From Parcubacteria group bacterium (GTDB lineage: Bacteria; Patescibacteriota; Minisyncoccia; Phycocordibacterales; DATDWN01), in NCBI GenBank assembly GCA_040079825.1, contig JBEBJP010000001.1, positions 1 to 52,162 on the forward strand: a DNA stretch of 52,162 bases. Reading direction: 5' to 3'. Position 1 is the first letter of the stretch, and the number at the start of each line of letters is the position of its first letter. The notes beneath the pieces are model-generated. The model ran no database searches. It was not told the origin of the DNA and saw only the letters and a list, made by a program, of their open reading frames with translations. Both the position numbers and the translations under genes were made by a program. Positions 10,862 to 42,067 of the stretch are shown piece by piece.

Positions 10862-11740
10862 ATGCTATCATATTTTAATATGTGGATATTATTTTCACTT
10901 TTAGCAGCATTCTTTGCAGCAACTGCAGGTGCGATTAGCAAACTAACTCTACAAAAAGTTGATGAGTATTTAGTGACCTGGGCATCTTTTGCTTTTAGTA
11001 TTCCGATACTCTTTGTTGTACTATTTTTCATCAAAATTCCTATATTAAATAACTTATTTTGGTTGGGAATACTAGGAAGTAGTGTATGTAATGCAATTGC
11101 TTTTATTGCTTTTTTTAGTAGCTTAAAACGACTCCCTATATCATTAGTTAAACCATTTCTAGCTTTTTCACCTCTACTTCTCACTGTTTTATCATTCATT
11201 ATTCTCAAAGAATTGCCGAGTGGATATGGTTTAACTGGAATAATAATGATTGTAATTGGCGCATATGTTTTAAATCTTAAAGAAATATCTTGGAATATTT
11301 TTTCTCCATTTAAGGAACTTTTCGGTCAAACAAAAAACTTAATATTATTTATACCTATAATTTTCTGGACGCTATCAGCAATCTTTGACAAAATTGCTGT
11401 TCAAAACTCTTCCCCTCTTTTTTATCTAACAACTCTTCCAATCTTTATCACAATTATCACTTCTATTATTATGAAGCAAAAATCAAACAACATCATAATA
11501 AAAATAAAAAGTAATTATTTTGCTTTAATTATAATTTCATTTCTCGGATTAGTTATGCAGATTTTTTACCTTACTTCAATCAAAAATACTCCGATCTCTT
11601 ATGTCTCTGCGGTAAGAAGCCTTGATTTTCTATTTTCTGTAGGATATGGATTTATTTTGTTTAAGGAGAGTATGATAAAGCAAAGATTTATAGGGGCTGG
11701 ATTTATGGTTTTGGGAGTTTCACTACTAGCCTTTGCTTGA
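10862..11740 (+). CDS. EamA/DMT-family transporter
   Basis: About 10 TM helices in two halves. I trimmed the track ORF (10643) to the ATG at 10862, because the upstream part is antisense to the GH125 gene. Confidence 0.65.
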   Translation: MLSYFNMWILFSLLAAFFAATAGAISKLTLQKVDEYLVTWASFAFSIPILFVVLFFIKIPILNNLFWLGILGSSVCNAIAFIAFFSSLKRLPISLVKPFLAFSPLLLTVLSFIILKELPSGYGLTGIIMIVIGAYVLNLKEISWNIFSPFKELFGQTKNLILFIPIIFWTLSAIFDKIAVQNSSPLFYLTTLPIFITIITSIIMKQKSNNIIIKIKSNYFALIIISFLGLVMQIFYLTSIKNTPISYVSAVRSLDFLFSVGYGFILFKESMIKQRFIGAGFMVLGVSLLAFA

Positions 11741-19756: not shown

Positions 19757-19911
19757 TATAATCCTATCATTATTTCAATTTTTTTGGTAAAAAAATGGCC
19801 ACCCGCACGACGAGGCGTAGGTGACCATTCTCCAATTTGGAGCAAATTTTGTCTTGCAAATTAAGAAGAACTTGCCGTGGCTGGGACCACGGCCGAAGAG
19901 GAGGGGTAGAG

Positions 19912-20208
19912 CTAGACGAACGCGACCTTGGCTTTCTCGAGCTCCTGCTTCACCTGTCGCATCTTTACAGAAGCGCACAGTGAGCAGTCGGGGGTCCACG
20001 GGAATTCGTAGAGCCTGCCTGGCGAGATTCGATTCGTACACTCGCCGTTCTGGCACTCTCCGTAAGTGCCGTTAGAAATGCGACCCAAAGCTTCGTTGAC
20101 TGCCCGAAGCTTCTTGCGATCGGCATCCGAAAGCGACATCTGTGCCGCCTTCGCATCAAGATCCGTCTTGATCCCTCTCAAGACGGTAGCCCGGTGGTGA
20201 AGTGTCAT
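19912..20208 (-). CDS. TraR/DksA-family C4 zinc-finger protein (GC-rich cassette 2)
   Basis: 98 aa: GECQNGEC-x-RISPGRL-x9-CSLC matches the TraR/DksA C4 finger pattern. GC-rich third positions. A hairpin plus T-run lies downstream on the minus strand (~19785-19830). Confidence 0.7.
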   Translation of the reverse strand: MTLHHRATVLRGIKTDLDAKAAQMSLSDADRKKLRAVNEALGRISNGTYGECQNGECTNRISPGRLYEFPWTPDCSLCASVKMRQVKQELEKAKVAFV

Positions 20209-20304
20209 ACGACTACCCCTACGAGACTCTTTCGTTGAACAAACGAACCAATATTTAGTGTTACATCTGTATAAATAAATGTCAAGTAAATAGACTAAAA
20301 ATAA

Positions 20305-20344: not shown

Positions 20345-20426
20345 AAACAATCCTTTTATTTTCATGCCTATATTCTTCAATTGCTCGAGTCCAAGCCATA
20401 CGCAAAAATATTTACAATATTTTTTT

Positions 20427-20642
20427 GCTGTGTTTCTTGAATGAAGTTAGAACTTTTTTCCAAAATAATTCTAACTCTGACTAATGAATTCCGTCACGGC
20501 TCGGCATCCGTTCCAGAACACGCTGGGAGCGTGTTCCTCCACTTCTGCCGACCCGCTCCGCCCTCGCCTCGCCACCGTATTCATTCTAGGTTTTTTGGCG
20601 CGACTTCCTTTTTGATTTGGTATGTCGGTGGCGGTCTCGGGC
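20427..20642 (+). repeat. Inverted repeat IR-A, left copy (216 bp)
   Basis: Exact reverse complement of 30057-30272 wherever I compared. Spurious ORFs 20441..20707 and 30031..30258 translate identically for 67 aa. Confidence 0.9.
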
Positions 20643-21175
20643 GGGTTTCTCTTGAAAGAGAAACTGACGGAATTCACTCGGTGACGGACGTTTGCTGTGC
20701 TTCCTAGATTTTATCATAACGGCTCATATCGTGGTATGTGAGCCGTTCACTTGTTGTCTCGTGCTTATTTCTCGCTAGTGGCAGTCCGTGGGTGCAACCC
20801 TCGGCATCCGCCTCGGGCATTTCCGCTAGGGCTACGAGCGCCTAGATTGCTAGGAGTTCTGCTTATTCCTCGCTTCGCTCGGAATGCAGAACATCTGTTT
20901 GGGGGAAGGAAGGAATCCTTCCCCCAGCTTCGCCTCGGTTCGTGCGTCCGCTTCGCGGCGCATTCCGCAGAGCGGAACAGGGCTCACCCCACCCGGCTCG
21001 CACAACCCCCTTTCTCGTTTTCATATTCATGTTCGTAGTGTCGCTTCCGATTTGACTGGAAAAGACTTTGAAAACGGCGGCGCTCGTCAGATACCGGACG
21101 CCCTAGCGGAAATGCCCGAGGCTGCATCTTGTGTGTTTGACCCACCCTCCCAGTTCGCACACACATTTTGCTCCC
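20485..21175 (+). ncRNA. Candidate large structured RNA (unclassified), GC-rich and ORF-poor
   Basis: Nested perfect helices: 20811-20832/21100-21121 (22 bp), 20485-20496/20665-20676 (12 bp). Hairpins at 20516-20536, 20718-20747, 20856-20892 and 20901-20925. Only R/P/A-rich shadow ORFs are present. The strand call is based on a single T-G wobble, so it is tentative. Confidence 0.45.
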
Positions 21176-21625
21176 TTAGATTTTTGAATACGAAACTCCT
21201 TTTCCAGTTTTACCACTTTGCTTTATTTTATTTTCTTTCTCCAGTATTTCTAGGTATCGTGTTGCTGTTGCGTCAGATACACGCAAAAACTTTTCTACTT
21301 CATCGTTGGTTATATTTGTTCGCTTCGCGAACAAAGTCATGATGTGATCGAGTTTCTTTCTTTTTCGAGTTTGGATTGCAAATCGTGCTTTGTTCAGCAA
21401 ATCTCTTGCGAGATTTGGTTTAGGAGACACAGGCTCCGCCTGTGTAGGAGAAGATGCAGGAGCAGAATCGGTTTCGACCGATTCGGGTTCGGGTTCAACT
21501 TGTTTCGTTTCCGAAACAGATTCAGAAACTAACGGCTCACTTGGTGGTACTTGAGCCGTTTGAGGTTGTGGTTCGATTGGAGCTTCTGATGAGATGTCTA
21601 TATTTGGAGCTATTTCGTCACTCAT
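21176..21625 (-). CDS. Acidic/Pro-rich protein with C-terminal winged-helix DNA-binding domain (candidate regulator)
   Basis: 149 aa. The C-terminus ITNDEVEKFLRVSDATATRYLEILEKENKIKQSGKTGKGVSY is wHTH-like. The ATG lies 6 nt after a TATAAT box, so the mRNA is probably leaderless. Confidence 0.6.
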   Translation of the reverse strand: MSDEIAPNIDISSEAPIEPQPQTAQVPPSEPLVSESVSETKQVEPEPESVETDSAPASSPTQAEPVSPKPNLARDLLNKARFAIQTRKRKKLDHIMTLFAKRTNITNDEVEKFLRVSDATATRYLEILEKENKIKQSGKTGKGVSYSKI

Positions 21626-21629
21626 CTAA

Positions 21630-21716
21630 ATATTATATACCAAACGGCTCATTTGGTAAGCCGTATTTTCAGCGTTTTTGACTTGACAAAGAGAGTGAAG
21701 TGTGCTAAGATAGATA
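21630..21716. promoter_or_regulatory. Divergent promoter/operator module, copy 1
   Basis: Rightward: TTGACA 21683-21688, 17 nt, TAAGAT 21706-21711. Leftward: TTACCA (21655-21660 rc), 16 nt, TATAAT (21632-21637 rc). The palindrome ACCAAA-N7-TTTGGT lies at 21639-21657. The module is near-identical to 24087-24170. Confidence 0.7.
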
Positions 21717-21769
21717 ACAGAGGGGAGGCGTTACGCCAAACCCAACAGTTTCGCCCATAGGAGGGCACC

Positions 21770-22423
21770 ATGCAGAACATTCTGATCATTGAAGACACCC
21801 TGAAGCACCAAGCGGCGGCGCGAGCACAGTTTCCGGAGGCAGTTGTCGTCAACTACGACGAAGCCTACGAGCTCCTGCGCGACGCACGTCACGGCGACTA
21901 CTCGGCGATCCTCACGGACCTCCACTTCAAGACGGAGAGGAACAGGATCATCCCGGCCATGCCCTTCGGCCCGCAATTCGAGCGGAACGACGGGGCGATC
22001 GGCAAGGAGTTCCCGTTCGGCCTCTGCTTCGCGCTGAAAGGCGTCGAGCTCGGGATTCCGGTCGTGATCGTCAGCGACGCCGACCATCACTCCGACATGG
22101 TCACCGCCATGCTGGATATGATGGGTTTCCTCGTTCAACCACGCGGTGGCAAGGACGAGAAGCGACACTTCATCAAAGGTGGAGGACGTGGTCCCGAGTC
22201 GTTCAGCTGGGAGAATCGGGTTCAGAATCCCCGGTTGATCAGCAAGATGTCCAACTGTCCGAAGGCGGAGGACATGCACTGGAACGGCGACGAGATCGTG
22301 TCCGCACCCCCGGTGAAGCCGGAACCGTACACCGAGCAGGGTTGGAAAACCTACGCGAACAGTCAGGTGAAAGACTGGCGCGAGGCACACCGGCTTCTCT
22401 CTGCTGTCATGGCCGAGTCGTAG
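21770..22423 (+). CDS. Receiver (REC)-like domain protein with unknown C-terminal half (GC-rich cassette 3)
   Basis: 217 aa. SD AGGAGGG. NILIIEDT...AILTDLHF...VVIVSD resembles a CheY-like fold. Strong G/C third-position bias. The antisense ORF 21731..22390 is a shadow. Confidence 0.6.
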   Translation: MQNILIIEDTLKHQAAARAQFPEAVVVNYDEAYELLRDARHGDYSAILTDLHFKTERNRIIPAMPFGPQFERNDGAIGKEFPFGLCFALKGVELGIPVVIVSDADHHSDMVTAMLDMMGFLVQPRGGKDEKRHFIKGGGRGPESFSWENRVQNPRLISKMSNCPKAEDMHWNGDEIVSAPPVKPEPYTEQGWKTYANSQVKDWREAHRLLSAVMAES

Positions 22424-22488
22424 TACAAAAGGATTCGTGCTCTTCTCCTTAAAAGAGAGCTCCTAGCAGTGGTGGTCAACTGTAGTGG

Positions 22489-22516
22489 CGTCACGATATT
22501 ATCGTGGCGTTTTTTG
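22489..22516 (+). terminator. Terminator of cassette 3
   Basis: Stem CGTCACGA/TCGTGGCG (8 bp, one G-U), loop TATTA, then TTTTTT. Confidence 0.7.
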
Positions 22517-22521
22517 TTTAT

Positions 22522-23553
22522 TTATTTTTGATTTCCCAAGATATAACCCTCAAACTTTTTTGCCAAATCATACACAGTATTTTTTGCTGGTGAATCAGGA
22601 CAGTTTTCTAGAAAACTAAGAATGTTGTCTGTGTATTCCGTGTGTGTAAATTTAGGTAAGTTGTTTTCTCCTGTAAAAGCTCCAATGAATTTAACTAAAT
22701 GAGATTTAAAATCAGCTAATTTAATCATTTTTCCTCCATCGGAAATATGTTTCAGTTTCTCATAGTATTCTTTTACCTGTTCTCCTTTGTAATCTTTTGG
22801 ATGAGATACTTCATCTACCATATCTGCCACTCTTTTTCCAAAAATTCTTTCTATTTGCTCATATGTAGCAGAAGTATCTTCAAGAGTGTCGTGAAGAAGT
22901 CCGGCAATTAAAACTTCTTCATCCTCTATTCCAAACTCTTCTTTAAGAATCTGGCATACTTCCAGAAAATGATTTCCAGTTTCTATTTCAGCAAATTTTT
23001 TACTTGCGAATTTCTTTGCTAGTTCAATTGGATTTTCTACTGTCTCCTTAGTAACATCCTCAAAGTTATACTCTTTCATTTCTAAAGCTCTTTTCATGAG
23101 ATGATCGCCAATCTCACCCCATTTGATATATTCTTTATAATCTTTTGGATCAATTAGTTTTATTTCTAAAATATCTCCATCTGGATCTTTCTCAAATTCT
23201 CCATATGGTTTAACAATACAAAACATCCTAAATTGTCTTGCTATCCCATTTCCATATGACACTTCTACATCTTGATATCCAATACATTCAATATGAAGAA
23301 CTTTCATGTTCGATTCTTCTTTTATTTCCCGTATAGCGGCTTCAGTATATGTTTCTCCTTTCTCAATAGCTCCACCTGGGGGAGTCCAGTTGTTATCTGC
23401 TCCGTGACCGACAATGACTAGTTTGTCTCCATAGAAACAATACGAATGAACACCATCCTTTGTCTCATCAGGAGTTTCTAATTCGGGAACTCCGTCAGTA
23501 TAAGTGACTTTATAAGTTTTTCCTCTATGATCAAATTGAGTTTTTATTTGCAT
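22522..23553 (-). CDS. Nudix hydrolase fused to SpoT/RelA-type HD phosphohydrolase domain
   Basis: 343 aa. Nudix box [23 protein letters not shown]. The HD motif LLHDTLEDT lies in the C-terminal half. The gene overlaps the upstream rdgB-like gene by 23 nt. Confidence 0.8.
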
Positions 23554-24082
23554 TTAAGTATTCTTTAAGTTTTTCAACTGCTATTTTTCTCATGCTGAAA
23601 GAATTTTTCTCTTCAGCAGTCAATTCTCCAAAAGTTTTATCGTATCCTTCAGGCTGAAAGATTGGGTCCCAACCAAATCCGCCCTCACCTCGTGGAGAAA
23701 CTATTGTGCCTTTGGTATTACCTTCAAAGAACTCAACATTCCCAGATGAATCGGAGTAGCCAATTACAACTTTTGCTTCTGCGTTGTAGTTTCCAAATGT
23801 CTCTGCCAATTTATATAAACCTTCTTTTTGGATAGTCTTTAAGAACCACTTTATGAAAGGTCCAGGAAGTCCATTCATAGCTTCGAGATACAGCGAATTA
23901 TCCTCAACAATAAATTCTCCTTTCTGGTGCTTCTGTGCTTCTTCTAGCTTAGCCTTGATTATTTTGTGTGCATCCATTTCTTGGATTTCGGGCAAATCAA
24001 TATCAAGAGCCTCAACATCTCCTAAAATACTTTGAACTTCAGCTAGCTTACCTTTGTTACCTGTAATGAAATATAGTGACAT
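23531..24082 (-). CDS. rdgB: Non-canonical purine NTP pyrophosphatase (RdgB/HAM1 ITPase)
   Basis: [16 protein letters not shown]...[19 protein letters not shown] is the typical HAM1 family pattern. The start was set at the ATG at 24082, about 7 nt after the leftward TATAAT, so the mRNA is probably leaderless. The track ORF extends to 24121. Confidence 0.85.
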
Positions 24083-24086
24083 ATCC

Positions 24087-24170
24087 ATATTATATACCAA
24101 ACGGCTCATTTGGTAAGCCATATTTTCCGCGTTTTTGACTTGACAAAGAGATTGAGAAGGTGTATAATAG
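24087..24170. promoter_or_regulatory. Divergent promoter/operator module, copy 2
   Basis: Rightward: TTGACA 24140-24145, 17 nt, TATAAT 24163-24168. The palindrome ACCAAA-N7-TTTGGT lies at 24096-24114. The ~65-bp core is almost identical to copy 1. Confidence 0.7.
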
Positions 24171-24271
24171 TACTAGAATTCCTATTCGTTATGGATAGGT
24201 GGCTCCTAGGAGCAACGGGGTTATTTTTCCTACCTCGACCAAAGGAAATCGTTCGTTTACAGGAGGTCGTT

Positions 24272-24604
24272 ATGACCAATACAGCACAGAGAGAACTCGT
24301 TGCGGGTCCATCACGTGAAGAACTCTTCGACGCACTTCGGCTTCGGCACGAAGGACGCAAGGTCACCTTCACAGTGGCTCCGTCACACATCACTGGCCGA
24401 GTACTTGCTGGAGGACGAAGGTTCGTTCCCGGCAACCTGGCCTTCCATGTTCACGTGATCGAACTCGGCAACGAGAACGATGGCAACGGTACCAACTGGC
24501 TGTTCAAACTCTACGACGAGCACGCTGTTCTCGGCTCGATGTACCTCGAAGGATACATCAATCTCACGACTCGCAAGGGTTACGTGAGACCCGCCACGAA
24601 CTAG
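24272..24604 (+). CDS. Hypothetical protein (110 aa), GC-rich cassette 4
   Basis: SD AGGAGG lies 6 nt upstream of the ATG. It has a coding-like G/C third-position bias, its own promoter and a strong terminator. No family recognised. Confidence 0.55.
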   Translation: MTNTAQRELVAGPSREELFDALRLRHEGRKVTFTVAPSHITGRVLAGGRRFVPGNLAFHVHVIELGNENDGNGTNWLFKLYDEHAVLGSMYLEGYINLTTRKGYVRPATN

Positions 24605-24616
24605 GCGATCGCAAAC

Positions 24617-24664
24617 GCTCCACACTGAAAAGCTTCACAGCTTTCACAGTGTGGAGCTTTTCTT
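24617..24664 (+). terminator. Terminator of cassette 4
   Basis: 11-bp stem GCTCCACACTG/CAGTGTGGAGC with an inner AAAGCT/AGCTTT hairpin, then a T-run. Confidence 0.75.
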
Positions 24665-24693
24665 GTATAAAAAATGATATACTTTTAGTTAAT

Positions 24694-24900
24694 ATGGCAC
24701 AGAAAATTATTTTAAAATGTGATAAATGCGGAAAAGAATTTGAACTTATGGTTGGTCATCTAAAAAGTACAGCGGGTAAAGTTCCTGACGAAGAAATAGA
24801 ACAGAAAGATGGCAAGAAAGCTAAAGTTTTCGTCTCAGAAATATTTAATCATAAGTGTGATGGAAAAATATCTCTAGAAACTGGAGCATTCGTGGATTAA
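24694..24900 (+). CDS. Small zinc-ribbon-like protein (68 aa)
   Basis: MAQKIILKCDKCGKEF...HKCDGKI has CxxC and a distal HxC. It is AT-rich. Its stop codon overlaps the stop of the DUF3800-like gene on the opposite strand. Confidence 0.45.
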   Translation: MAQKIILKCDKCGKEFELMVGHLKSTAGKVPDEEIEQKDGKKAKVFVSEIFNHKCDGKISLETGAFVD

Positions 24901-25838
24901 AATAATTTCGATTGATTTGGATTATGCTCAAAAGCTAGATCGATTTTAGATATATCATAATAATTATCCATTGATCTGATAATTGATCCGGGAACAGAGT
25001 TTATTTTAGGGAAAAATGATAAATGAAATCTATTACTATGCCCGTATTTACTATTTGTGTTTCTAGATTGTCGAATAATTCTCTTAATTAATAATTCTTG
25101 AACTATATTTGAGTTTAAAATCTCCCTTTTATTCTCATTTTTCTTGCTTTCAAAGATACCGCAATGAATATCTTTGTATATACCCGCAAGAATATCGCAC
25201 AATTCTAGTATATTGGATAAAGGATTATCCCTATGGCTTTTTGGTAAAAATTCTATTCTTTCGCATTTAAAATTTAAATGTTCGTCTTGGTCTAATTTAA
25301 AAATAGTATGCCAATCAAAATAATCATGTTCTTGTTGCGAGCCTTCTTCGTGGTAGATATTCTCAACAACCACTCCTGATCCAAAGAATTTTTTAAGAGA
25401 ATACTGAAGCATCGATCTGAAAAATCTATTGTAAATAGAGTTTAACTTTTGTTTGTCACTAAACTCCTCAATGTTAAGATTTGTAAGGTTTATAGCCGTG
25501 AGAGAAAAGTAAAATTTTCTGTCTGAAAAACAATCATCCTGTATAAATTTTAACCATCTTTCTATAATAAATTTCTTGTTAGCATCTTTACCAAAATCTA
25601 CCCAATGTATATCAGTATCATTCTCCTCCTTGCGGGACTCCCAATCTTCTTTATCTTTTAAATAACGTAGATTTATTAGATCTTCGAGAATTGGCTTATC
25701 GAGTCTTTCGTAAATAGCCACAGAGTATATCCACACTTCACTCGTTATTTTATTTTTTGTCTGCCATATCTCATCAGAATAGATATTTACATGAATCGCT
25801 TTTTTTGGATCAATTGAATCCCCGAATAAATCAATCAT
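24897..25838 (-). CDS. DUF3800-like protein, last gene of the R-M operon
   Basis: 313 aa. The N-terminal VNIYSDE and C-terminal LELCDILAGIY resemble the DUF3800 DES...ADxxAG pattern as I remember it. The gene starts 6 nt after the res stop. Confidence 0.5.
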   Translation of the reverse strand: MIDLFGDSIDPKKAIHVNIYSDEIWQTKNKITSEVWIYSVAIYERLDKPILEDLINLRYLKDKEDWESRKEENDTDIHWVDFGKDANKKFIIERWLKFIQDDCFSDRKFYFSLTAINLTNLNIEEFSDKQKLNSIYNRFFRSMLQYSLKKFFGSGVVVENIYHEEGSQQEHDYFDWHTIFKLDQDEHLNFKCERIEFLPKSHRDNPLSNILELCDILAGIYKDIHCGIFESKKNENKREILNSNIVQELLIKRIIRQSRNTNSKYGHSNRFHLSFFPKINSVPGSIIRSMDNYYDISKIDLAFEHNPNQSKLF

Positions 25839-25844
25839 AGATTA

Positions 25845-28076
25845 TTATCTCAAATCTAAAAATTTCCAATCTTTAAGATTATTCGGGTTGTATTCGTATT
25901 TCAACTTATCATGATAACGCCAACTATTTTTTTCTTTCAGTACAATCCCACCATATAATTTTTTACCTTTCTTGTTTTGCTCTGTAATATATTTTGCTAG
26001 TCCTTCGGCTCGTGATTTTGCTGTTTCAGCAGTAAGTCCTCCTTTCGTATCAAACAAACCAACATGACCTCCTTTTTGCATTACAACAAAATCAACATAA
26101 AACGGCTTCTCAACTCCATGCTCAATATGAGGTACAGCAAAATAAGAACCGTCTTTTGTCCCATTTTTAAACCACCATTCAACTGATTTTGATTTTTCTA
26201 AAAATTCTATGAAATCAACTTCAAGTTGACTATCCTCAAACAAATCTTCTGTTGCTGTTCCAGATTTTCTTGTGTAATAAGGTTGTATTATTGATTTTTT
26301 GTAATCTTTCTTTGCAAAAGATAAGGTATAGTTTATTACTTTCGGTACGTTCCATGGCTCTTCATTTTTTAGTAACTCATTTTTACCTTTTCCAACTTCT
26401 TCTTGGTACATCTCTTTTGCAAGATTGATAGTGTTAGTCATTATTTGTTGATTTTCTTCTGCAAGAACAGCGGCTTGAATCTTCGGCCATTCATCTTCGT
26501 TTCGTGATGCTTCGAAAAATGAATATATTGAGCTTTTTATACGACCGATTGAGCGTTGTTCTGGTGCGAATGGCGCAAGATTATTTCGAGCAAACATATC
26601 AAATGCGTTCTGCAATTCAACTTCGTTTTTAGGAATATCGAGTGTTCCTTTTTTCTCAATATTTTTTGATTCCTTGTCAGCGTCAGTGATCCGACCACTT
26701 GCGATTAAACTTGTTTTCAGAATGCTGTGTTTAAACGAAAATTTTTCCTTTAATTTCAATTTTTTACCAGCTTCAATAAAAAGAGGGGTGAAATCAGATG
26801 AAAGTCGTGTCTCCTCACGGAAGCGTTTTGAGTGGTAAGATAACAAATCAAGATTTTTATAATTCTTTATCCTAAGTCCTGTAAAAGTCGTAATGTAATC
26901 ACGCGACAAATCCTCTGCGACATTTATATCCTGCAAACTCGTAAATACATAGCCAACATTCAAGTCTTGATCGGCGTAATGTTTCTGTTCGGGCATACGC
27001 ATTATGCGCCCAAGTGTTTGGATAGAGAAAGTGATATTTTCTTCACGCCATTGTCTAAACAAAACCAAAATTGTCGCACGAGGACAATCCCAGCCAAGCG
27101 AAATTGCTTGCTTAAATATCATCACATCAACTTCGTTTTCGTTTTTCTCAATATTTGCTAGATTTATTTTATTATCCTTATCAGAGAGATATATCGCGAG
27201 TCGTCCATTTTCTGTTGTGTAACCAAATTTCTTGAGCAAAGCGATAATCTCATCCTTTTTATCGGATACTCCCTGCATGGCATCCGGTAATTGAATAAGT
27301 AAAAGAGGATTTACACTCGAGCCTTCGGCTTCGAGTTTTTTATGTAATTCAATTCGCTTTTTTAACGCACTTTCAAGCACGAGTTCGTCTGCCGATTTAT
27401 CGCTTTTCTTTTTATCAATAATGTAATGCTCAAAGCCCGGATTTATAATAATCTCTTTCTTGATCATCTCCTCATCCTTTACATCTTTGAGTTCCACCTC
27501 CACGATTCTATTTGCTCCAAGTTGTGGAGTTGCTGAAACTTCAATCGTAATTTTTGGTCCAATATCCTGTATTAGTTCCTTTGATTTTTCACTATTTGCT
27601 GTGTGATGACTTTCATCAATAATAAGAAAAATCATTCTGCCCTCATCTTTTGTGCGAGCAATAACACTCGTCAAATTATTATCTCGTTCGTTTGCGCGCA
27701 CATAAAGATTGTCTTTTTTATTGATACTTGCCCAGTTCAAGAATAAAATCTCATTTTCGCTAATCTTGCGGTCATCTAAATCTTCAAAATACGAACATTT
27801 TATCCCTACGCCGTTTTGGTCATAGTATTTTCTTAAATTGTTCCTGCTCTGGTCGTGTAATTTATTTACAGCAATCCATATAAACGAAAATTTTTTACTA
27901 TCTATACGAGAATCAATTAAACGCTTCAAAAACTCTGCCATCATCAGAGTTTTACCAGAACCAGTGGGTGCTTTAAAAATACAAACTTTACTTCCGTCTG
28001 TATCTAATAGTTCGTTGATTTCTCGTTTCAACTTTACGACTGCATTTTCTTGATAATTTTTGAATTCAAATATCAT
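25845..28076 (-). CDS. res: Type III restriction enzyme Res subunit (SF2 helicase-nuclease)
   Basis: 743 aa with helicase motif I KAPTGSGKT and motif II IIDESHH. It lies immediately downstream of mod. Confidence 0.85.
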   Translation of the reverse strand: MIFEFKNYQENAVVKLKREINELLDTDGSKVCIFKAPTGSGKTLMMAEFLKRLIDSRIDSKKFSFIWIAVNKLHDQSRNNLRKYYDQNGVGIKCSYFEDLDDRKISENEILFLNWASINKKDNLYVRANERDNNLTSVIARTKDEGRMIFLIIDESHHTANSEKSKELIQDIGPKITIEVSATPQLGANRIVEVELKDVKDEEMIKKEIIINPGFEHYIIDKKKSDKSADELVLESALKKRIELHKKLEAEGSSVNPLLLIQLPDAMQGVSDKKDEIIALLKKFGYTTENGRLAIYLSDKDNKINLANIEKNENEVDVMIFKQAISLGWDCPRATILVLFRQWREENITFSIQTLGRIMRMPEQKHYADQDLNVGYVFTSLQDINVAEDLSRDYITTFTGLRIKNYKNLDLLSYHSKRFREETRLSSDFTPLFIEAGKKLKLKEKFSFKHSILKTSLIASGRITDADKESKNIEKKGTLDIPKNEVELQNAFDMFARNNLAPFAPEQRSIGRIKSSIYSFFEASRNEDEWPKIQAAVLAEENQQIMTNTINLAKEMYQEEVGKGKNELLKNEEPWNVPKVINYTLSFAKKDYKKSIIQPYYTRKSGTATEDLFEDSQLEVDFIEFLEKSKSVEWWFKNGTKDGSYFAVPHIEHGVEKPFYVDFVVMQKGGHVGLFDTKGGLTAETAKSRAEGLAKYITEQNKKGKKLYGGIVLKEKNSWRYHDKLKYEYNPNNLKDWKFLDLR

Positions 28077-28077
28077 A

Positions 28078-29790
28078 TTATTTAAAAATTTCCCGATACA
28101 CTTTCAATATTACCTCTGGTATTGCACAAAGCGTTACCTTATCCTTAACATCAACAAATTTCTTTGCGTGCGGGTCATCACCCATAGAAAAAACATAAGT
28201 GTTGAAATGCCCATTAATTTTTTTAATTGCTTTTTTATAGTCCTCTATTGATTCCTCATAGAAAATGACTCCGACATATTTATCAGTATTTTTGAAAATC
28301 TTGAATTCGTCTGTTTCTTGTATAAGCTCAAAAGCATTTTCCAAAATACAAAGCATATCAGCCGATTCTTTAACTAATTTTCTTTTATTTTTATCTGTCG
28401 GCTCAGCCTCGACAAAATCAGTAGTGTAATATTTCAGATTTCCACCAAGTCCCTCTTCCATATCTCCCTTAGTTTTCTTGTATCCCTTAATTGATTTTTT
28501 AATTCTTGGGTAGCAAATATCAGAAGCAATTTTGTGTTCAGATTTTTCGTCACCATTATTTGTACATAATATAAAAGACCTTTTTCCTCCATCTTCTTTA
28601 TTTAAAGCAAGCACAGCTTGTCCAGTTGTTCCTGAGCCAGCCATAAAGTCTAAGACAACAGCATTTTTATCTCCAATTAACTGAAGTATCTGTTTAATTA
28701 AACGAGTCGGTTTTGGTGTAGAAAAAAGTTCATCAGACTGCTCGAAAAAGTCCTTTAATTCTTTTTTTGCCTCATCGGTGTGTCCTGCTTGTTCATGTAG
28801 AAATATAGTAGACGCCTTTCGTCCTTGTTGCACTTCATCTAAAAATTGCTTGAGGGACGGGAAGGCATTTCCATTTTTACCAAAATAAAGTCTATTATCT
28901 TTTTGTAATTCAAGCATGTTGTCTTGTGCGTAAGACCAATGTTTACCACTAGGAGCATTAAATTTATCTCCCTTTGGTCCCGTTATAATGTAATGTCCAT
29001 TTTTTCGCTCCTCATTTGCGACTATATCACCTGGCTTCCAGACTCCGCGTGGGTCATTATCAGGATTTTTATAACGAGCGTTCATTTTATCTGTTCTAGG
29101 TAAGAGTTGAACATTAAGATGTTCTATATTTTTTGCATAGACCAAAATGTATTCGTGATCAACAGAAATGTGGCGTGATTGATTCTTTGGACTATATGCT
29201 CTTTGCCAAATTATTGTAGATACAAAATTTTGTTCTCCAAAAATTTCATCACAAAGCATTTTTAATGGTGCTTGTTCGTTATCATCAATACTTATAAAAA
29301 TTGCGCCCATTTCTTTTAAAATAAATCGGGAAAGTTTTAATCGCTTCTCCATAAAAGAAAGCCATTTACTGTGTCTGAAACTATCCTCTTTGTCTACAAA
29401 CTTATCATTATAGATAAAATCGTTATTACCTGTATTATAAGGCGGATCAATGTATATCAAATCTACAGCTTCGCGGTGTGTGAAATTAAGAACAGCAAGA
29501 GAATGATAATTGTCACCTTCAATCAAAAGATTAACGAGTTTTGATTTATCAGATTCAATGGCTTTCCCTTTAACTTCTTTTAAAACAGGAAATGGCTTAC
29601 CCGCCATTTCGTTGGGGAATAGTTCATTTGGAGTTCGTGCGTCAGGATTAACGAGAATATCAATTTTTTCTTCAGGTAAATCACGATGCCAAACAAGCCC
29701 ATATGTCGTGCTTTTAATTTTTACAATCTCCTTGATCAATTCCTCCTTTGACCAAGCATCATATTCTTTTCCGTTTATCTTTTTTGACAT
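28078..29790 (-). CDS. mod: Type III R-M Mod DNA methyltransferase (N6-A/N4-C class)
   Basis: 570 aa with catalytic motif IYIDPPYNTGN and the AdoMet motif LDFMAGSGTTGQA in beta-class order. Confidence 0.9.
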   Translation of the reverse strand: MSKKINGKEYDAWSKEELIKEIVKIKSTTYGLVWHRDLPEEKIDILVNPDARTPNELFPNEMAGKPFPVLKEVKGKAIESDKSKLVNLLIEGDNYHSLAVLNFTHREAVDLIYIDPPYNTGNNDFIYNDKFVDKEDSFRHSKWLSFMEKRLKLSRFILKEMGAIFISIDDNEQAPLKMLCDEIFGEQNFVSTIIWQRAYSPKNQSRHISVDHEYILVYAKNIEHLNVQLLPRTDKMNARYKNPDNDPRGVWKPGDIVANEERKNGHYIITGPKGDKFNAPSGKHWSYAQDNMLELQKDNRLYFGKNGNAFPSLKQFLDEVQQGRKASTIFLHEQAGHTDEAKKELKDFFEQSDELFSTPKPTRLIKQILQLIGDKNAVVLDFMAGSGTTGQAVLALNKEDGGKRSFILCTNNGDEKSEHKIASDICYPRIKKSIKGYKKTKGDMEEGLGGNLKYYTTDFVEAEPTDKNKRKLVKESADMLCILENAFELIQETDEFKIFKNTDKYVGVIFYEESIEDYKKAIKKINGHFNTYVFSMGDDPHAKKFVDVKDKVTLCAIPEVILKVYREIFK

Positions 29791-29792
29791 AA

Positions 29793-29999
29793 TTATTTCA
29801 AAAGTTCGTCAGTTGAAACTCCTAGAGATTTTGCAATTTTGGAGATAGTTGAGAGTGTTGGGTTTGTTTTTCCGTTTTCAATAGTACTGATAAAACCGCG
29901 ACTAAGTCCTAACTCCCGAGCAATATCGCCCTGCGATATTGCCTTTTTTGTCCTAATTCTTTTCAGATTTAGCCCTAACTTTGCCGACTCATTTTTCAT
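29793..29999 (-). CDS. XRE-family HTH protein (controller C-protein-like)
   Basis: 68 aa: LKRIRTKKAISQGDIARELGLSRGFISTIENGKTNPTLSTISKIAKSLG. It is the first gene of the mod-res operon. Confidence 0.85.
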   Translation of the reverse strand: MKNESAKLGLNLKRIRTKKAISQGDIARELGLSRGFISTIENGKTNPTLSTISKIAKSLGVSTDELLK

Positions 30000-30008
30000 T
30001 ATCCACAG

Positions 30009-30053
30009 TATATCGTATTGTTATAGTCTATCACAATGTTATGATATATCGTA
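30009..30053. promoter_or_regulatory. Candidate operator: two TATATCGTA direct repeats upstream of the C-protein gene
   Basis: The 9-mers at 30009-30017 and 30045-30053 lie between the C-protein ATG (29999) and IR-A. Confidence 0.35.
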
Positions 30054-30056
30054 ACA

Positions 30057-30272
30057 GCCCGAGACCGCCACCGACATACCAAATCAAAAAGGAAGTCGCG
30101 CCAAAAAACCTAGAATGAATACGGTGGCGAGGCGAGGGCGGAGCGGGTCGGCAGAAGTGGAGGAACACGCTCCCAGCGTGTTCTGGAACGGATGCCGAGC
30201 CGTGACGGAATTCATTAGTCAGAGTTAGAATTATTTTGGAAAAAAGTTCTAACTTCATTCAAGAAACACAGC
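30057..30272 (-). repeat. Inverted repeat IR-A, right copy (216 bp)
   Basis: Reverse complement of 20427-20642. Its outer end overlaps IR-B by 2 nt. Confidence 0.9.
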
Positions 30273-30401
30273 CCTGAGTGCAATTTAGAAAAGTGAGTAA
30301 AATCCGGAGCGTCACGCAGTGACGCAAATCGGCAATCCGCCGGAATCCGCCAAGGCATTTTGAAATCTGAAACCAGAATTCGATTCGCCACGATGGGGTT
30401 C
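30271..30401 (+). repeat. Inverted repeat IR-B, left copy (131 bp)
   Basis: Reverse complement of 31841-31971 with one mismatch (30393). After a 34-nt insert (30402-30435, two 6-bp hairpins), a further 11 bp (30436-30446) match 31830-31840. Confidence 0.9.
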
Positions 30402-30485
30402 CTGCTTATTAAAGCAGTATGAGTAGTAACTCATTGAGCCAATCTTGAAGCAATAATTACAAGCGATACTTAACATAAACTTTCT

Positions 30486-32030
30486 ATGTCTAACAACAAA
30501 TTCTTTCTCTATGCTCGTAAATCTACGGACGAACCTGATCGTCAGATATTAAGTATTGAGTCGCAGATTGATGAGCTGAAAGAATTTGCTGTGCGAGAGC
30601 AATTGGAAATTGTTGAAACTTTTATTGAGTCACAAACCGCCAAAGAACCTGGTCGTCCCATTTTCAACAATATGCTCTCGCTCATGGAAAAAGGTAAGGC
30701 TTCGGGAATTTTGGCGTGGCATCCCGATCGTTTGGCGAGAAATAGTGTTGATGGTGGAAAAATTATTTATTTATGTGATATCGGTAAAATTTTGGAGCTA
30801 AAATTCCCGACGTTTTGGTTTGATTCCACTCCTCAAGGTAAGTTTATGTTAAATATCGCTTTTGGGCAGAGCAAATACTATGTGGACAATCTTTCAGAGA
30901 ATGTAAAACGTGGCTTGAGAACAAAAGTGAGGCGAGGCGAACAGTCCGGTCAAGCTCCGACAGGATATTTGAACGATATGATAAACAAAAAGATGCTTCC
31001 CGATCCGGAACGGTTTCGCCTCGTCAGACGGATGTTTGAACTCTACGCCACAGGGAATTATTCTCTGAAAGCTGTCCGTGATTTGCTCGCCCAAAAAGGC
31101 TTGGTATCTAAAAGTGGTAAAGTTCTCTCTATTTCAAACACACAAATGATATTGAGTAATCCGTTTTATTATGGAATGTTTGTATTTAACAAGGAACTTT
31201 ACCAAGGAAAGCACGAGCCAGCGATTTCAAAGAAACTTTTTGATGCGTGTCACGAGATAATGCTACGAAACGCTCATCCGATGAAGCGAGGAATTAACCA
31301 GCATGTCTTTCGCGGACTTTTGAAATGTGCAGAATGTGGTTGTGGTATTACAAGCGAAGTGAAGAAAGGTCATATCTACTATCGCTGTACTAAAAAGAGA
31401 GATGTCTGCACACAACCGTATGTCCGCGAAGAATCCCTCGCAACACAGATGAGTGACACAATCAAAAAAGTTTCTTTGTCGTCAGAGTGGAAGGATTGGT
31501 TGCTCGCTGAACTAGACAAGGAACAAGCGAGCACCTTCCACTCAGACGCCCTTTTCGTTCAAAATCTGAAAAATCAGATAATTAAGGTTGAGGAGTTGTT
31601 AGAGAAGCTTTTAGACGCTCATTTGGACAGTACAATATCGAGTGGGGAATACGTCGCGAAAAAGCAAAAGCTCCTCAACCAAAAAGTTGATTTTTCAGAG
31701 AAACTTAAGGATTTTGAACGAAAAGGCAATCGTTGGCTCGAACTTTCTAAACAATTTATTTTAGACTGTAACCAAGCCGTAATTATTGCTTCCGGAGAAA
31801 ATCTCGAAGAGAAAAGAGATTTTCTCAAAAAGATTGGCTCGAACCCCACCGTGGCGAATCGAATTCTGGTTTCAGATTTCAAAATGCCTTGGCGGATTCC
31901 GGCGGATTGCCGATTTGCGTCACTGCGTGACGCTCCGGATTTTACTCACTTTTCTAAATTGCACTCAGGGCTGCCAGACTTGGACTCGAACCAAGATACA
32001 CGCCTCCAGAGGGCGCGGTCCTACCATTAG
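30486..32030 (+). CDS. Large serine recombinase (resolvase domain + recombinase domain + zinc ribbon + coiled coil); true 3' end uncertain
   Basis: FLYARKSTDEPDRQILSIESQ carries the catalytic Ser region. A zinc ribbon is present (CAECGCGITSE...YYRC). From about aa 452 the frame runs through IR-B and stops inside tRNA-Gln. Confidence 0.85.
   Translation: MSNNKFFLYARKSTDEPDRQILSIESQIDELKEFAVREQLEIVETFIESQTAKEPGRPIFNNMLSLMEKGKASGILAWHPDRLARNSVDGGKIIYLCDIGKILELKFPTFWFDSTPQGKFMLNIAFGQSKYYVDNLSENVKRGLRTKVRRGEQSGQAPTGYLNDMINKKMLPDPERFRLVRRMFELYATGNYSLKAVRDLLAQKGLVSKSGKVLSISNTQMILSNPFYYGMFVFNKELYQGKHEPAISKKLFDACHEIMLRNAHPMKRGINQHVFRGLLKCAECGCGITSEVKKGHIYYRCTKKRDVCTQPYVREESLATQMSDTIKKVSLSSEWKDWLLAELDKEQASTFHSDALFVQNLKNQIIKVEELLEKLLDAHLDSTISSGEYVAKKQKLLNQKVDFSEKLKDFERKGNRWLELSKQFILDCNQAVIIASGENLEEKRDFLKKIGSNPTVANRILVSDFKMPWRIPADCRFASLRDAPDFTHFSKLHSGLPDLDSNQDTRLQRARSYH
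31841..31971 (-). repeat. Inverted repeat IR-B, right copy
   Basis: See the left copy. Its outer end is the discriminator base of tRNA-Gln. Confidence 0.9.
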
Positions 32031-32041
32031 ACGATCTGGCA
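31971..32041 (-). tRNA. tRNA-Gln (anticodon CTG)
   Basis: Hand-folded cloverleaf: TGCCAGA TC GTCT AATGGTA GGAC C GCGCC CTCTGGA GGCGT GTAT CTTGG TTCGAGT CCAAG TCTGGCA G. It has U1-A72 and G73, as in Gln tRNAs. Confidence 0.85.
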
Positions 32042-32180
32042 ATGAGTAAAAGATACTCTAAAATAGAGCTTTTTACAAGAAGAATATTGGGTGAAAACCA
32101 AGACTACTTATTCTTCTTTGGCTTCTTCTTTTCTTTTCTATGTGTTTCACCTTTTGACATAACTTTATTATAATACAAAA

Positions 32181-32676: not shown

Positions 32677-34335
32677 TTATTTATCTTTATTTTTTAAACA
32701 AGCCTCAACAAAAGCTGTAAACAAAGGATGTGGGTTCATCGGTCTAGCTTTTAATTCTGGATGAAACTGAGTTCCCAAGAAAAAAGGATGCACTGATTTT
32801 GGTAGCTCAGCTATTTCCATAAGCTTTTCGTCTGGGGATGTGCCAGAGAAAATCAACCCCGCCTTTTTTATTTCTTCAACATACTCAGGATTAACTTCAT
32901 ATCTATGACGATGTCTTTCGGAAATGCTTGATGCTTTATATGAATTTTTTGCAATAGTTCCGTCTTTTAGCTTCGCGGTGTATGCACCAAGTCTCATAGT
33001 AGCTCCGTAGTTTCCGTTCTCCAAGTTTTGCTTCTGGTCTGGCATTATATCTATAACAACGTGAGATGACTTAGGATTTATTTCTGCTGTATGTGCATCC
33101 TTCCAACCAATAACATTTCTGCAATACTCTATAACTGCAAGTTGCATTCCATAACAAAGTCCTAGATAAGGTATCTTGTTCCGACGAGCGTATTCGATTG
33201 TCATTATTACTCCTTCTATCCCACTCTCACCGAACCCACCAGGGACAATTATCCCATCAAACTTAGAAAGCTCGCTAATCTTCTCTGGATTTTTTTCATA
33301 ATCTTTTGAATTTATCCAAGTTAGGTTTGTGGTCGAATCCTTCCAGTATGAAGAAAACTTTACCGCTTCAATCACAGAAACGTACGCGTCCGAAAGTGTG
33401 TACTCGCCAGTATCAAAATATTTTCCTACAACAGCAATGTCTAGAACTTTCTTAGCATTTCTTCTTTTATCTACAAATTTTTTCCAGTCTTCTATTTCAC
33501 TGTTGTTAGATTTTTTTCTCATGTGAAGAGTTTTCAATATAACAGAGCTTATCTTGTCTCTTTCAAAGTTTAATGGAACATCGTATATACTCTTTATATC
33601 TGGAGCAGATATCACATTTTCTGGTTTTATAGCACAAGACACAGCTATCTTCTCTTTTCTTTTTTGATCTAGTGGTTCTGGACCACGAGCTATTATTATA
33701 TCTGGCTGAACTCCATATGAGTTAAGTTGTCTAACAGCATTTTGGGTTGGTCTGGTTTTCATCTCACCCAAAGACCCTGGAACAGGAAGGTAGGACACCA
33801 TCACAAACATCACATCATTTGGATGTTTTATCTTTAGAACTCTAGCAGCTTCGATAAAAAGTATATTCTGATAATCTCCTATAGTTCCACCTATTTCTAT
33901 AAGCGAGATGTCCGACTCGTGATGATCTGCGCATTTCTTCCACCTACGAACAATCTCGTCTGTTATATGGGGTATGGCCTCTACACACTTACCACGATAA
34001 CCCAGATTACGCTCCTTCTCTATAACATGTTTGTAGACCATACCTGAGGTCATATAGTTTTCAGAAATCAAATCCATCTCAAGAAATCTCTCATAGTTAC
34101 CCATATCCTGATCGGTTTCAAGTCCAGAATCCAAAACAAACACTTCTCCATGTTCTGTGGGATTCATAGTACCAGCATCAACATTTAAATAAGGGTCAAC
34201 CTTTATTGGATTGACCTTGAAACCTTTGCTTTGAAGAATCTTACCTATTGAAGACGACGCAATCCCCTTACCAACTCCTGACATTACCCCTCCTAAAACG
34301 AATATATATTTCTGATTTTTATTTTTCATAATCAA
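32677..34335 (-). CDS. pyrG: CTP synthase
   Basis: 552 aa. N-terminal GGVMSGVGKGI synthetase domain and a C-terminal GATase domain (GLCYGMQ, HRHRYEVN). Confidence 0.95.
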   Translation of the reverse strand: MIMKNKNQKYIFVLGGVMSGVGKGIASSSIGKILQSKGFKVNPIKVDPYLNVDAGTMNPTEHGEVFVLDSGLETDQDMGNYERFLEMDLISENYMTSGMVYKHVIEKERNLGYRGKCVEAIPHITDEIVRRWKKCADHHESDISLIEIGGTIGDYQNILFIEAARVLKIKHPNDVMFVMVSYLPVPGSLGEMKTRPTQNAVRQLNSYGVQPDIIIARGPEPLDQKRKEKIAVSCAIKPENVISAPDIKSIYDVPLNFERDKISSVILKTLHMRKKSNNSEIEDWKKFVDKRRNAKKVLDIAVVGKYFDTGEYTLSDAYVSVIEAVKFSSYWKDSTTNLTWINSKDYEKNPEKISELSKFDGIIVPGGFGESGIEGVIMTIEYARRNKIPYLGLCYGMQLAVIEYCRNVIGWKDAHTAEINPKSSHVVIDIMPDQKQNLENGNYGATMRLGAYTAKLKDGTIAKNSYKASSISERHRHRYEVNPEYVEEIKKAGLIFSGTSPDEKLMEIAELPKSVHPFFLGTQFHPELKARPMNPHPLFTAFVEACLKNKDK

Positions 34336-41826: not shown

Positions 41827-41827
41827 G

Positions 41828-41901
41828 TGTCGGCGGAAGGACTTGCACCTTCGACCTTGGGCTTATGAGTCCCACGCTCTAACTACCTGAGCTACGCCGA
41901 C
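41828..41901 (-). tRNA. tRNA with CAT anticodon (Met or Ile2)
   Basis: GTCGGCG TA GCTC AGGTAGTTA GAGC G TGGGA CTCATAA GCCCA AGGTC GAAGG TGCAAGT CCTTC CGCCGAC A. Confidence 0.8.
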
Positions 41902-41987: not shown

Positions 41988-42058
41988 AGCGGGATAGAGA
42001 AGCAGTATCTCGGTAGGCTCATAACCTGCAGACCCAGGTGCAAGTCCTGGTCCCGCAA
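41988..42058 (+). tRNA. tRNA with CAT anticodon, atypical (possible initiator-like 1-72 mismatch)
   Basis: AGCGGGA TA GAGA AGCAGTA TCTC G GTAGG CTCATAA CCTGC AGAC CCAGG TGCAAGT CCTGG TCCCGCA A. It has an A1xA72 mismatch and a D-loop without GG. Confidence 0.55.
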
Positions 42059-42067
42059 CAAGTAATA

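Follow-up and report, generated by a model that had tools for sequence, protein, structure and literature searches.

A 52,162-nucleotide (nt) stretch of DNA from a Parcubacteria group bacterium (GenBank assembly GCA_040079825.1, contig JBEBJP010000001.1, positions 1 to 52,162; here the window) carries a large serine recombinase (LSR) gene that is enclosed by inverted repeats (IRs) and runs into the 3' end of a tRNA-Gln gene. This raises the question as to why a recombinase gene should be bracketed by copies of its own 3' end, and what part the tRNA plays in the arrangement. The answer that we favor, with modest confidence, is that the gene encodes a serine "suicidal" integrase, which would lose its native end upon integration and whose full-length gene would be rebuilt by inversion.

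A repeat search of the window returned two arms around the gene (30269-30401 and 31841-31973; 133 nt, 99% complementary), here called IR-B. When paired base by base, 30270-30401 is the reverse complement of 31841-31972, with a sole mismatch at position 30393; a repeat of 132 nt with one mismatch cannot have arisen by chance in 52 kb. Next to the left arm, 34 inserted nt (30402-30435) form two hairpins with 6-bp stems (CTGCTT-ATTA-AAGCAG and ATGAGT-AGTA-ACTCAT), followed by a further 11-nt match (30436-30446, the reverse complement of 31830-31840). The right arm terminates at the discriminator base, position 74, of a tRNA-Gln(CTG) gene on the minus strand (31968-32042 by ARAGORN, 31971-32041 by Rfam). 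An earlier note on this DNA had described the near-perfect repeats, the additional 11-bp match, the double-hairpin insert, and the end of the repeat at the tRNA, all of which were borne out. It had also held that these repeats are physically coupled to a second pair, here IR-A (20427-20642 and 30057-30272; 216 nt, 100% reverse complement). The coupling stands, since IR-A and IR-B appear to be the A and B halves of one duplicated attachment (att) region, attP, split at a shared core, but the overlap is 4 nt (CAGC, 30269-30272) and not 2 nt.

The enzyme is a large serine recombinase and not a Hin-type invertase. Its 514-amino-acid (aa) open reading frame (ORF; 30486-32030, plus strand) encodes a catalytic Resolvase domain (PF00239; E = 5e-22, residues 7-152), followed by the Recombinase (PF07508) and Zn_ribbon_recom (PF13408) domains of Pfam. 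Within the motif YARKSTDE, R11, S13, and T14 are invariant across 23 homologs, as are the zinc-ribbon cysteines C281, C284, C301, and C308, and an AlphaFold model places long helices at residues 333-436, the coiled-coil region. The enzyme class proposed in the earlier note is thus confirmed by the domains, the invariant residues, and the modeled helices. Similarity to solved LSRs in a PDB sequence search is limited to residues 8-235, a Pfam search gave no match to HTH_7 in the 514-aa protein, and an exact-protein look-up returned no match.

As the same note had described, the frame reaches the right arm at codon 452 and terminates at 32030, inside the antisense strand of tRNA-Gln. Its further claim, that the last ~60 codons are derived from the repeat and the tRNA, does not hold: antisense tRNA-Gln accounts for just the final 19 (codons 496-514), and codons 452 to ~478 are conserved recombinase sequence. 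A C-terminal block (..KKxGSNPxLAxRxLxxxxKxxWxILAE) reaches ~residue 478 in homologs, and conservation over these codons extends to homologs of down to 47% identity. Because of this conservation, we take the right arm (31841-31972, plus strand; expressed codons 452-495, starting at an invariant GGC TCG AAC, or GSN) to be genuine coding sequence and the left arm (30270-30401, minus strand) to be its silent inverted copy, with one difference, T455I. The comparison with homologs that the note had proposed for the C-terminal 60 aa gives a divided result. The region does prove to be coding sequence that homologs conserve, yet it cannot be called unrelated to the repeat, which those homologs carry too.

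Homologs of the recombinase number in the thousands, nearly all of them in the Candidate Phyla Radiation (CPR)/Patescibacteria. We examined by script ~160 related loci from these bacteria, drawn from genomes and a metagenome scan (cited here by L numbers). They share a common layout, in which a tRNA 3' end is followed by arm B', the LSR gene, arm B, arm A, 0 to 9 kb of cargo, and arm A'. An inverted repeat surrounds the gene in ~100 of the ~160 loci, and the bracketing was seen wherever flanks are present. Its arms measure 75 to 226 nt, commonly 132 to 134 nt, and are mostly 97 to 100% identical within a locus, with sequences that vary from one locus to the next. On the downstream side, the arm extends a few bases into the 3' end of an opposite-strand tRNA gene and stops there; the tRNA is one for Gln, Asn, Ser, Trp, Leu, Gly, or Asp. 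A second IR (91 to 434 nt) abuts the first in the 25 loci with a long upstream flank and encloses 1 to 9.4 kb of cargo.

Could such a structure be an assembly artifact, formed by chimeric joins from mixed integrated and excised forms or by fold-back chimeras? Many related contigs do end within or beside the repeats, and two are obvious assembler palindromes (L155, with a 1,492-nt IR, and L146, with a 1,812-nt IR). However, the left arm runs into unique hairpins and patches found nowhere else, and the same layout is recovered by MEGAHIT, SPAdes, and IDBA as well as in a complete genome (L036). Independent assemblies of the window's own element (L001 and L003) hold the same repeat. Moreover, the arms within many loci differ by few to many substitutions, which is impossible for collapsed repeats. 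We consider an artifact extremely improbable.

We next turn to the points at which the repeats meet each other and their surroundings. Read on the tRNA strand, the window contains three junctions: tRNA/B (..GTCTGGCAGC/CCTGAGTGC), A/B (..AAGAAACACAGC/CCTGAGTGC), and A/flank (..AAGAAACACAGC/AAAAAAATATTG). The same triad is present in all 25 loci, with a common core of 4 to 8 nt at tRNA positions ~71 to 74 that varies by target (CAGC for Gln, GGAGC for Asn, CCGC(CA) for Ser, and GCACCA for Leu). Because the three junctions share this short core, they can be read as attL (tRNA/B), an internal inverted attP (A/B), and attR (A/flank). On that reading, the tRNA 3' end (..TCTGGCAGC) supplies the B-type half-site and core of attL, the CAGC at 30269-30272 common to IR-A and IR-B is the core of the internal attP, whose P-arm is the right arm of IR-A (A, 30057-30272), and the outer 4 nt (GCTG) of the left arm of IR-A (A', 20427-20642), at the left end of the inserted element, are the core of attR.

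The spacing of these sites is also that of an LSR. In the window, 27 nt separate the motif GTTCTAAC from the core, versus 22 nt for the tRNA T-loop GTTCGAG, and in 18 of the 20 loci scored, the A side (GTTCGAAC/GTTCGGA) and the tRNA T-loop (GGTTCGA) likewise lie at 27 and 22 nt. This difference equals the 5-bp offset stated for serine integrases, in which the DBD2 motif is ~5 bp closer to the center in attB than in attP (PMC11722253). On its trailer side, the target shows no conservation. We take window positions 20427-31972 to be an 11.5-kb integrative element inserted by its LSR at the 3' end of tRNA-Gln.

The element is also mobile: a close relative occupies a different tRNA-Gln gene and flank, related elements form tandem arrays, and one element has been inserted into the attL of another. 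The relative, L001, has a 99%-identical recombinase and identical arms but is located at another tRNA-Gln gene (with a different anticodon stem), has different flanks, and lacks cargo. Insertion into the attL of another element was seen in L076, and L071 has three elements in tandem. Arrays of two or three family elements beside one tRNA gene span L071 1-11500 and L076 1-7800 and also occur in L028; the elements in L071 are separated by a repeated unit of ~200 nt that ends in a tRNA 3' fragment. At L001 102-169, a 68-nt palindrome stands in place of IR-A and the cargo and corresponds to the window structure minus everything between two copies of GTTAGAA.

An empty attB was not recovered. A Logan contig (L106, from SRR29156676) is 100% identical to window positions 33370 to 31970 and ends exactly at the attL core (..CTGGCAGC); at k = 31, this faintly suggests a branch there, with either an empty site or another occupant. 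Beyond the attR core by 33 to 47 nt, on the minus strand at 20378-20392, lies GGCTTGGACTCGAGC, an inverted copy of the tRNA-Gln T-arm, and the flank of L001 holds a similar inverted tRNA 3' fragment, GTCCAAGTCTG. Such fragments could have been left behind by past events there, or they could represent the other half of attB.

Where, then, is the native end of the gene? We distinguish an N state, in which the gene is convergent with the tRNA as in the window, from an F state, in which it is flipped, its native tail is restored, and it is co-directional with the tRNA. Past the core, N-state genes read antisense tRNA (..LDSNQD..SYH) or stop at once. By contrast, when the silent upstream copy is reverse complemented and translated in the frame of the duplicated segment, a conserved continuation follows the core in almost every locus. 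This tail (W[LR][CS]xL[NDE][EK][IV]RT[FY]Fx[EQ]NP..) stops after 17 to 20 codons and is found in all tRNA-target lineages. In the window, it reads CFLNEVRTFFQNNSNSD followed by a stop and is encoded on the minus strand of the right arm of IR-A (30057-30272); the severed native tail, again CFLNEVRTFFQNNSNSD and a stop, is carried on the plus strand by A' (within 20427-20642). The entropy of the silent tail by codon position (0.95, 0.55, and 1.21 for positions 1, 2, and 3) has a coding-type periodicity.

These comparisons indicate that the native ORF crosses the attP core, in the window 17 codons before its native stop, and that insertion swaps the last ~17 to 20 residues for codons of antisense tRNA. 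The left arm of IR-B and the right arm of IR-A together form an intact, inverted, in-frame silent copy of the native 3' end. That the window has both IR-A and IR-B, with a 4-nt overlap, is then explained because insertion would have split one copy of a single duplication at the core. The rebuilt full-length form is predicted to be 513 aa long, ending in ..HSGLCFLNEVRTFFQNNSNSD. The Arg of the tail is almost always encoded by CGA, within GTTCGAAC/ATCCGAAC.

The duplication might instead be a relic, an inverted copy of the attP region kept alike by gene conversion, with inversion a neutral by-product of homologous recombination. Mismatches between arms do look neutral and have no strand bias in G-U pairs (93 G-U on the plus strand, 79 on the minus strand, and 204 others), the arms of some loci have decayed to 88 to 92% identity, and one homolog lies beside tRNA-Gln without any IR (L009). 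A relic would not be expected to retain its layout among seven tRNA targets and recombinases that share just 47% identity, nor to keep a silent tail that is in frame, stops at a conserved distance, and has coding-type periodicity. It also sits poorly with an inner arm boundary and a hairpin insertion point that are fixed to the nucleotide across loci. A relic duplication is, in our view, unlikely. Pairing at the RNA level as the force that keeps the arms alike was rejected, given the lack of a strand signal in the same mismatches.

Both orientation states exist in related elements. The N state was found in ~95 loci. Flipped loci show either of two patterns: a plus-strand tRNA joined to arm B, the hairpins, and the gene was found in L010 (the same as L135), L018, L031, L117, L127, and L145, and a gene continuing through B' into A', with the native tail, in L125, L134, L137, L148, L160, and L178. 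Among 120 representatives of homolog clusters, ~12 have the native tail, for an N:F ratio of ~90:10. In L117, the complete flipped isomer (tRNA(+)/B.i.R.B'/A') is present on one contig; because its arms are 87.5% identical and share no identical run longer than 26 nt, a false join through the repeat is ruled out. L136 (N) and L137 (F), from different samples, have genes that are 100% identical over 1,411 nt and inverted relative to a flank that is 99.3% identical. N and F states are interleaved among elements 94 to 96% identical. An all-against-all comparison of the genome loci gave no close pairs with shared cargo, and pairs that proved informative were obtained solely in the metagenome scan.

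The direction of the cargo constrains how the flipped state arises. In the five F loci with a flank, the cargo is always co-directional with the gene, while N-state cargo runs against it. This fixed cargo direction fits inversion of the recombinase segment alone. Entry by way of the second, upstream attP copy does not fit and was rejected on the same five loci as the origin of the flipped state. A free flip-flop at equilibrium was also rejected, given the ~90:10 ratio and the fixed cargo. For the same reason, IR-A, apparently the A half of the duplicated attP region, is not a free switch, as the orientation of its cargo is fixed across loci. The likeness to the Hin H-segment drawn in the earlier note holds insofar as the IR-bounded recombinase segment inverts, with relatives in both orientations; it fails in that the repeat holds an attP core and a silent native tail.

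A further possibility is a circle with two attP sites and a long IR (A.B / B'.A'), as in the yeast 2-micron plasmid, in which orientation would reflect insertion through either attP. The junctions imply that excision by attL x attR would yield such a circle. The internal attP also appears active. At L053 9646-9870 / 11356-11581 and in L155, a tRNA-Ser gene stands on each side of the recombinase segment, the two being identical and inverted. In L053, tRNA-Ser is joined to both arms, a sign that a second tRNA gene may serve as a recombination partner of the internal attP. However, equal use of the two sites predicts ~50% of each orientation, one of them with cargo inverted relative to the tRNA, whereas we see ~90:10 and cargo co-directional with the tRNA in both states. 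Nor does the cargo contain a replication gene, and the family is almost absent from viral contigs. We consider this circle very unlikely. The two arms of L053 and of L155 carry different outer (P'-arm) variants, and similar hybrid arms are present in L076 and L117.

In the integrase model that we favor, the LSR would insert the element at a tRNA 3' end through an attP core lying inside its own ORF. Insertion would leave a tail-less or tail-swapped and probably disabled enzyme, the shut-off N state. Inversion between the 132-bp arms would then join the gene body to the silent copy and rebuild the full-length gene in place, giving the F state. The flip could be catalyzed by the recombinase itself (attP x attL) or occur by homologous recombination between the arms. 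In the F state, the gene would follow the tRNA promoter and run in the direction of the cargo, and the integrase may be re-armed for excision or further moves. Inversion would in this way solve the catch-22 of an integrase that truncates itself. A broader version, to which we give tentative and somewhat lesser credence, is that gene orientation serves as a heritable switch, free of any recombination directionality factor (RDF), between locked and mobilizable small defense islands, and that suicidal serine integrases of this kind are widespread in CPR bacteria.

The spacer between the silent arm and the gene (30402-30485, plus strand) has features of its own. The hairpins are inserted exactly at the dyad of a GTTC^GAAC motif in the silent copy, and their stems are perfectly Watson-Crick paired, with GAA/AAA loops, and co-vary between lineages. 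Beyond the hairpins and the 11-nt match, 30447-30460 is the reverse complement of 31779-31792, and 30461-30482 is that of 30840-30861. In loci L004-L063 as in the window, the spacer is complementary to its own gene in nested order and co-varies with the gene of each locus, also in diverged loci; the patches match gene positions ~1342-1355, 1294-1310, and 355-389 and are kept at 95 to 100% identity to that gene. The inner arm boundary (window 31840/31841) always reads GG(C/T) TCG AAC, Gly-Ser-Asn, with TCG as the Ser codon in 74 of 74 loci. The sequence GG(C/T)TCGAAC is a near-palindrome identical to the attP P-arm/T-loop motif. In some lineages, the spacer contains a possible promoter (TTGAAG-N17-TAACAT); a promoter and terminator scan upstream of the gene gave nothing decisive.

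Could these patches point to control at the RNA level, with inversion secondary? A read-through transcript might anneal to the 3' portion of the recombinase mRNA, or to antisense-tRNA read-through, for silencing or processing of the RNase III type. Complementarity of the 5' region to four parts of the coding region, nested in order and co-varying with the locus's own gene, would fit such a role, and 30057-30500 folds better than shuffled sequences (z = -4.4). But RNA control leaves unexplained why the repeat ends exactly at the recombination core and why it holds an intact attP and coding tail. In addition, the arms and hairpin stems have neither G-U enrichment nor strand preference, with the plus strand of the spacer folding more stably in 26 loci and the minus strand in 33. 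Rfam, at both gathering and E-value thresholds, matched tRNAs only and no RNA family in IR-A, IR-B, or the GC-rich stretches described below. We hold control by RNA to be distinctly unlikely.

Several observations weigh against the integrase model. The hairpins, the gene-complementary patches, and the invariant GG(C/T)TCGAAC fall outside its explanation, as do the loci with a tRNA gene on both sides (L053 and L155). The neutral-looking arm mismatches fit repeated homogenization, through a process that the model leaves unspecified. Residues 451-514 are modeled at a pLDDT of <50 (AlphaFold, 23 sequences), and a difference in activity between the N and full-length proteins, like a catalytic role of the tail, is conjectural. 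The DNA encoding the tail doubles as the attP P-arm, and its conservation therefore reflects in part a constraint on the DNA site. Finally, the evidence for two orientations comes from assembled contigs of related loci; most F contigs have identical arms and, taken alone, could be assembler path choices, with only L117 being robust.

The cargo of the window (20643-30056, 9.4 kb, minus strand; ORF calls, Pfam, and PADLOC) includes the res (25845-28076) and mod (28078-29790) genes of a type III restriction-modification system and an XRE regulator (29793-29999). The remainder comprises Nudix/HD and ITPase-like genes and GC-rich foreign ORFs. In the 24 other loci, the cargo spans 1 to 8.5 kb and is nearly always co-directional with the tRNA. 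It consists mostly of restriction-modification and defense genes, the main types being type I, II, and III restriction-modification, GmrSD, Schlafen/AlbA, RadC, and helix-turn-helix (HTH) genes. The cargo of the 25 loci yielded no conserved gene for an RDF/excisionase, for replication, or for transfer. An identity as a phage was rejected, as only two family members were found on viral contigs, both at contig ends.

Other features of the window lie within or near the element. A 76-nt direct repeat (92%; 21623-21698 and 24080-24155) contains a TTGACTTGACA-like sequence and lies just upstream of two ORFs of 55 to 64% GC (21770-22423 and 24110-24604), compared with 30 to 38% GC for the other cargo; the repeat might provide these foreign genes with a common promoter or leader. 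GC-rich stretches (49 to 58% GC) flank the left end of the element on both sides (19800-20300 and 20640-21150), and the outer one contains a DksA/TraR-like zinc-finger ORF (19912-20208, minus strand), for which an exact-protein look-up gave no match. Further downstream, two divergent tRNA-Met(CAT) genes (41827-41901 and 41988-42059), 86 nt apart, form a 30-nt imperfect inverted repeat.

How does this family compare with known recombination systems? The hin gene lies inside its invertible segment, and those of Gin, Cin, and Pin lie beside theirs; Gin and Cin inversion swaps C-terminal coding ends. These enzymes of the Hin/Gin type are small (~190 aa), have a C-terminal HTH, act at 26-bp sites with a Fis enhancer, and switch flagellin or tail-fiber genes. 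The segment described here resembles theirs in being found in both orientations among related loci, but its enzyme is a 514-aa LSR, its repeats are 132- and 216-nt att copies, and the swapped end is that of the recombinase itself.

Large serine integrases, such as those of phiC31, Bxb1, A118/LI, and SPbeta (SprA), have the same domain set (catalytic, recombinase, zinc ribbon, and coiled coil) and the same att logic, with a short shared core and a DBD2 motif 5 bp farther out on the attP half-site (PMC11722253). Unlike them, the present family targets tRNA 3' ends, with only the tRNA half-site conserved, has its attP core inside the integrase ORF, carries a second inverted attP and 3'-end copy upstream of the gene, and lacks a conserved RDF gene in the cargo surveyed.

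The closest precedent for an att site within the gene is that of archaeal SSV-type integrases, in which integration partitions the gene and excision may need an intact copy; such suicidal integrases have been stated to be exclusive to archaea (PMC8371274). The window's recombinase is similar in that the att core lies inside its ORF and integration truncates the gene. SSV-type enzymes are tyrosine recombinases of archaeal viruses and plasmids, whereas here the enzyme is a serine recombinase, the hosts are metagenome-assembled genomes of CPR/Patescibacteria, only the last 17 to 20 codons are lost, and the element carries its own inverted spare copy.

In forming small cargo islands at tRNA 3' ends, with tandem accretion and defense cargo, the family also resembles tRNA-targeting islands and tycheposons. 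Those use mostly tyrosine integrases and direct-repeat att sites that duplicate the tRNA 3' end. None is known to have an inverted attP inside the element or an integrase gene that can invert, and the abstract of one account (bioRxiv 10.1101/2020.12.28.424599) describes none. More generally, tRNA-targeting serine integrases with either property are undescribed in the literature searched; that library is incomplete, and an earlier description is possible.

On a practical level, the double inverted repeat systematically breaks short-read assemblies beside tRNA genes in these genomes, and members of the family supply a large set of natural LSR/att pairs that target conserved tRNA ends. If our interpretation is correct, orientation would constitute a third control of directionality for serine integrases, besides RDF proteins and hyperactive mutants, through a gene that is edited by integration and repaired by inversion. 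Suicidal integration would extend to bacteria and to serine recombinases. The CPR/Patescibacteria have tiny genomes and few recognized mobile elements, and this family, with its thousands of homologs, would apparently be a main vehicle of restriction-modification and other defense cargo among them.

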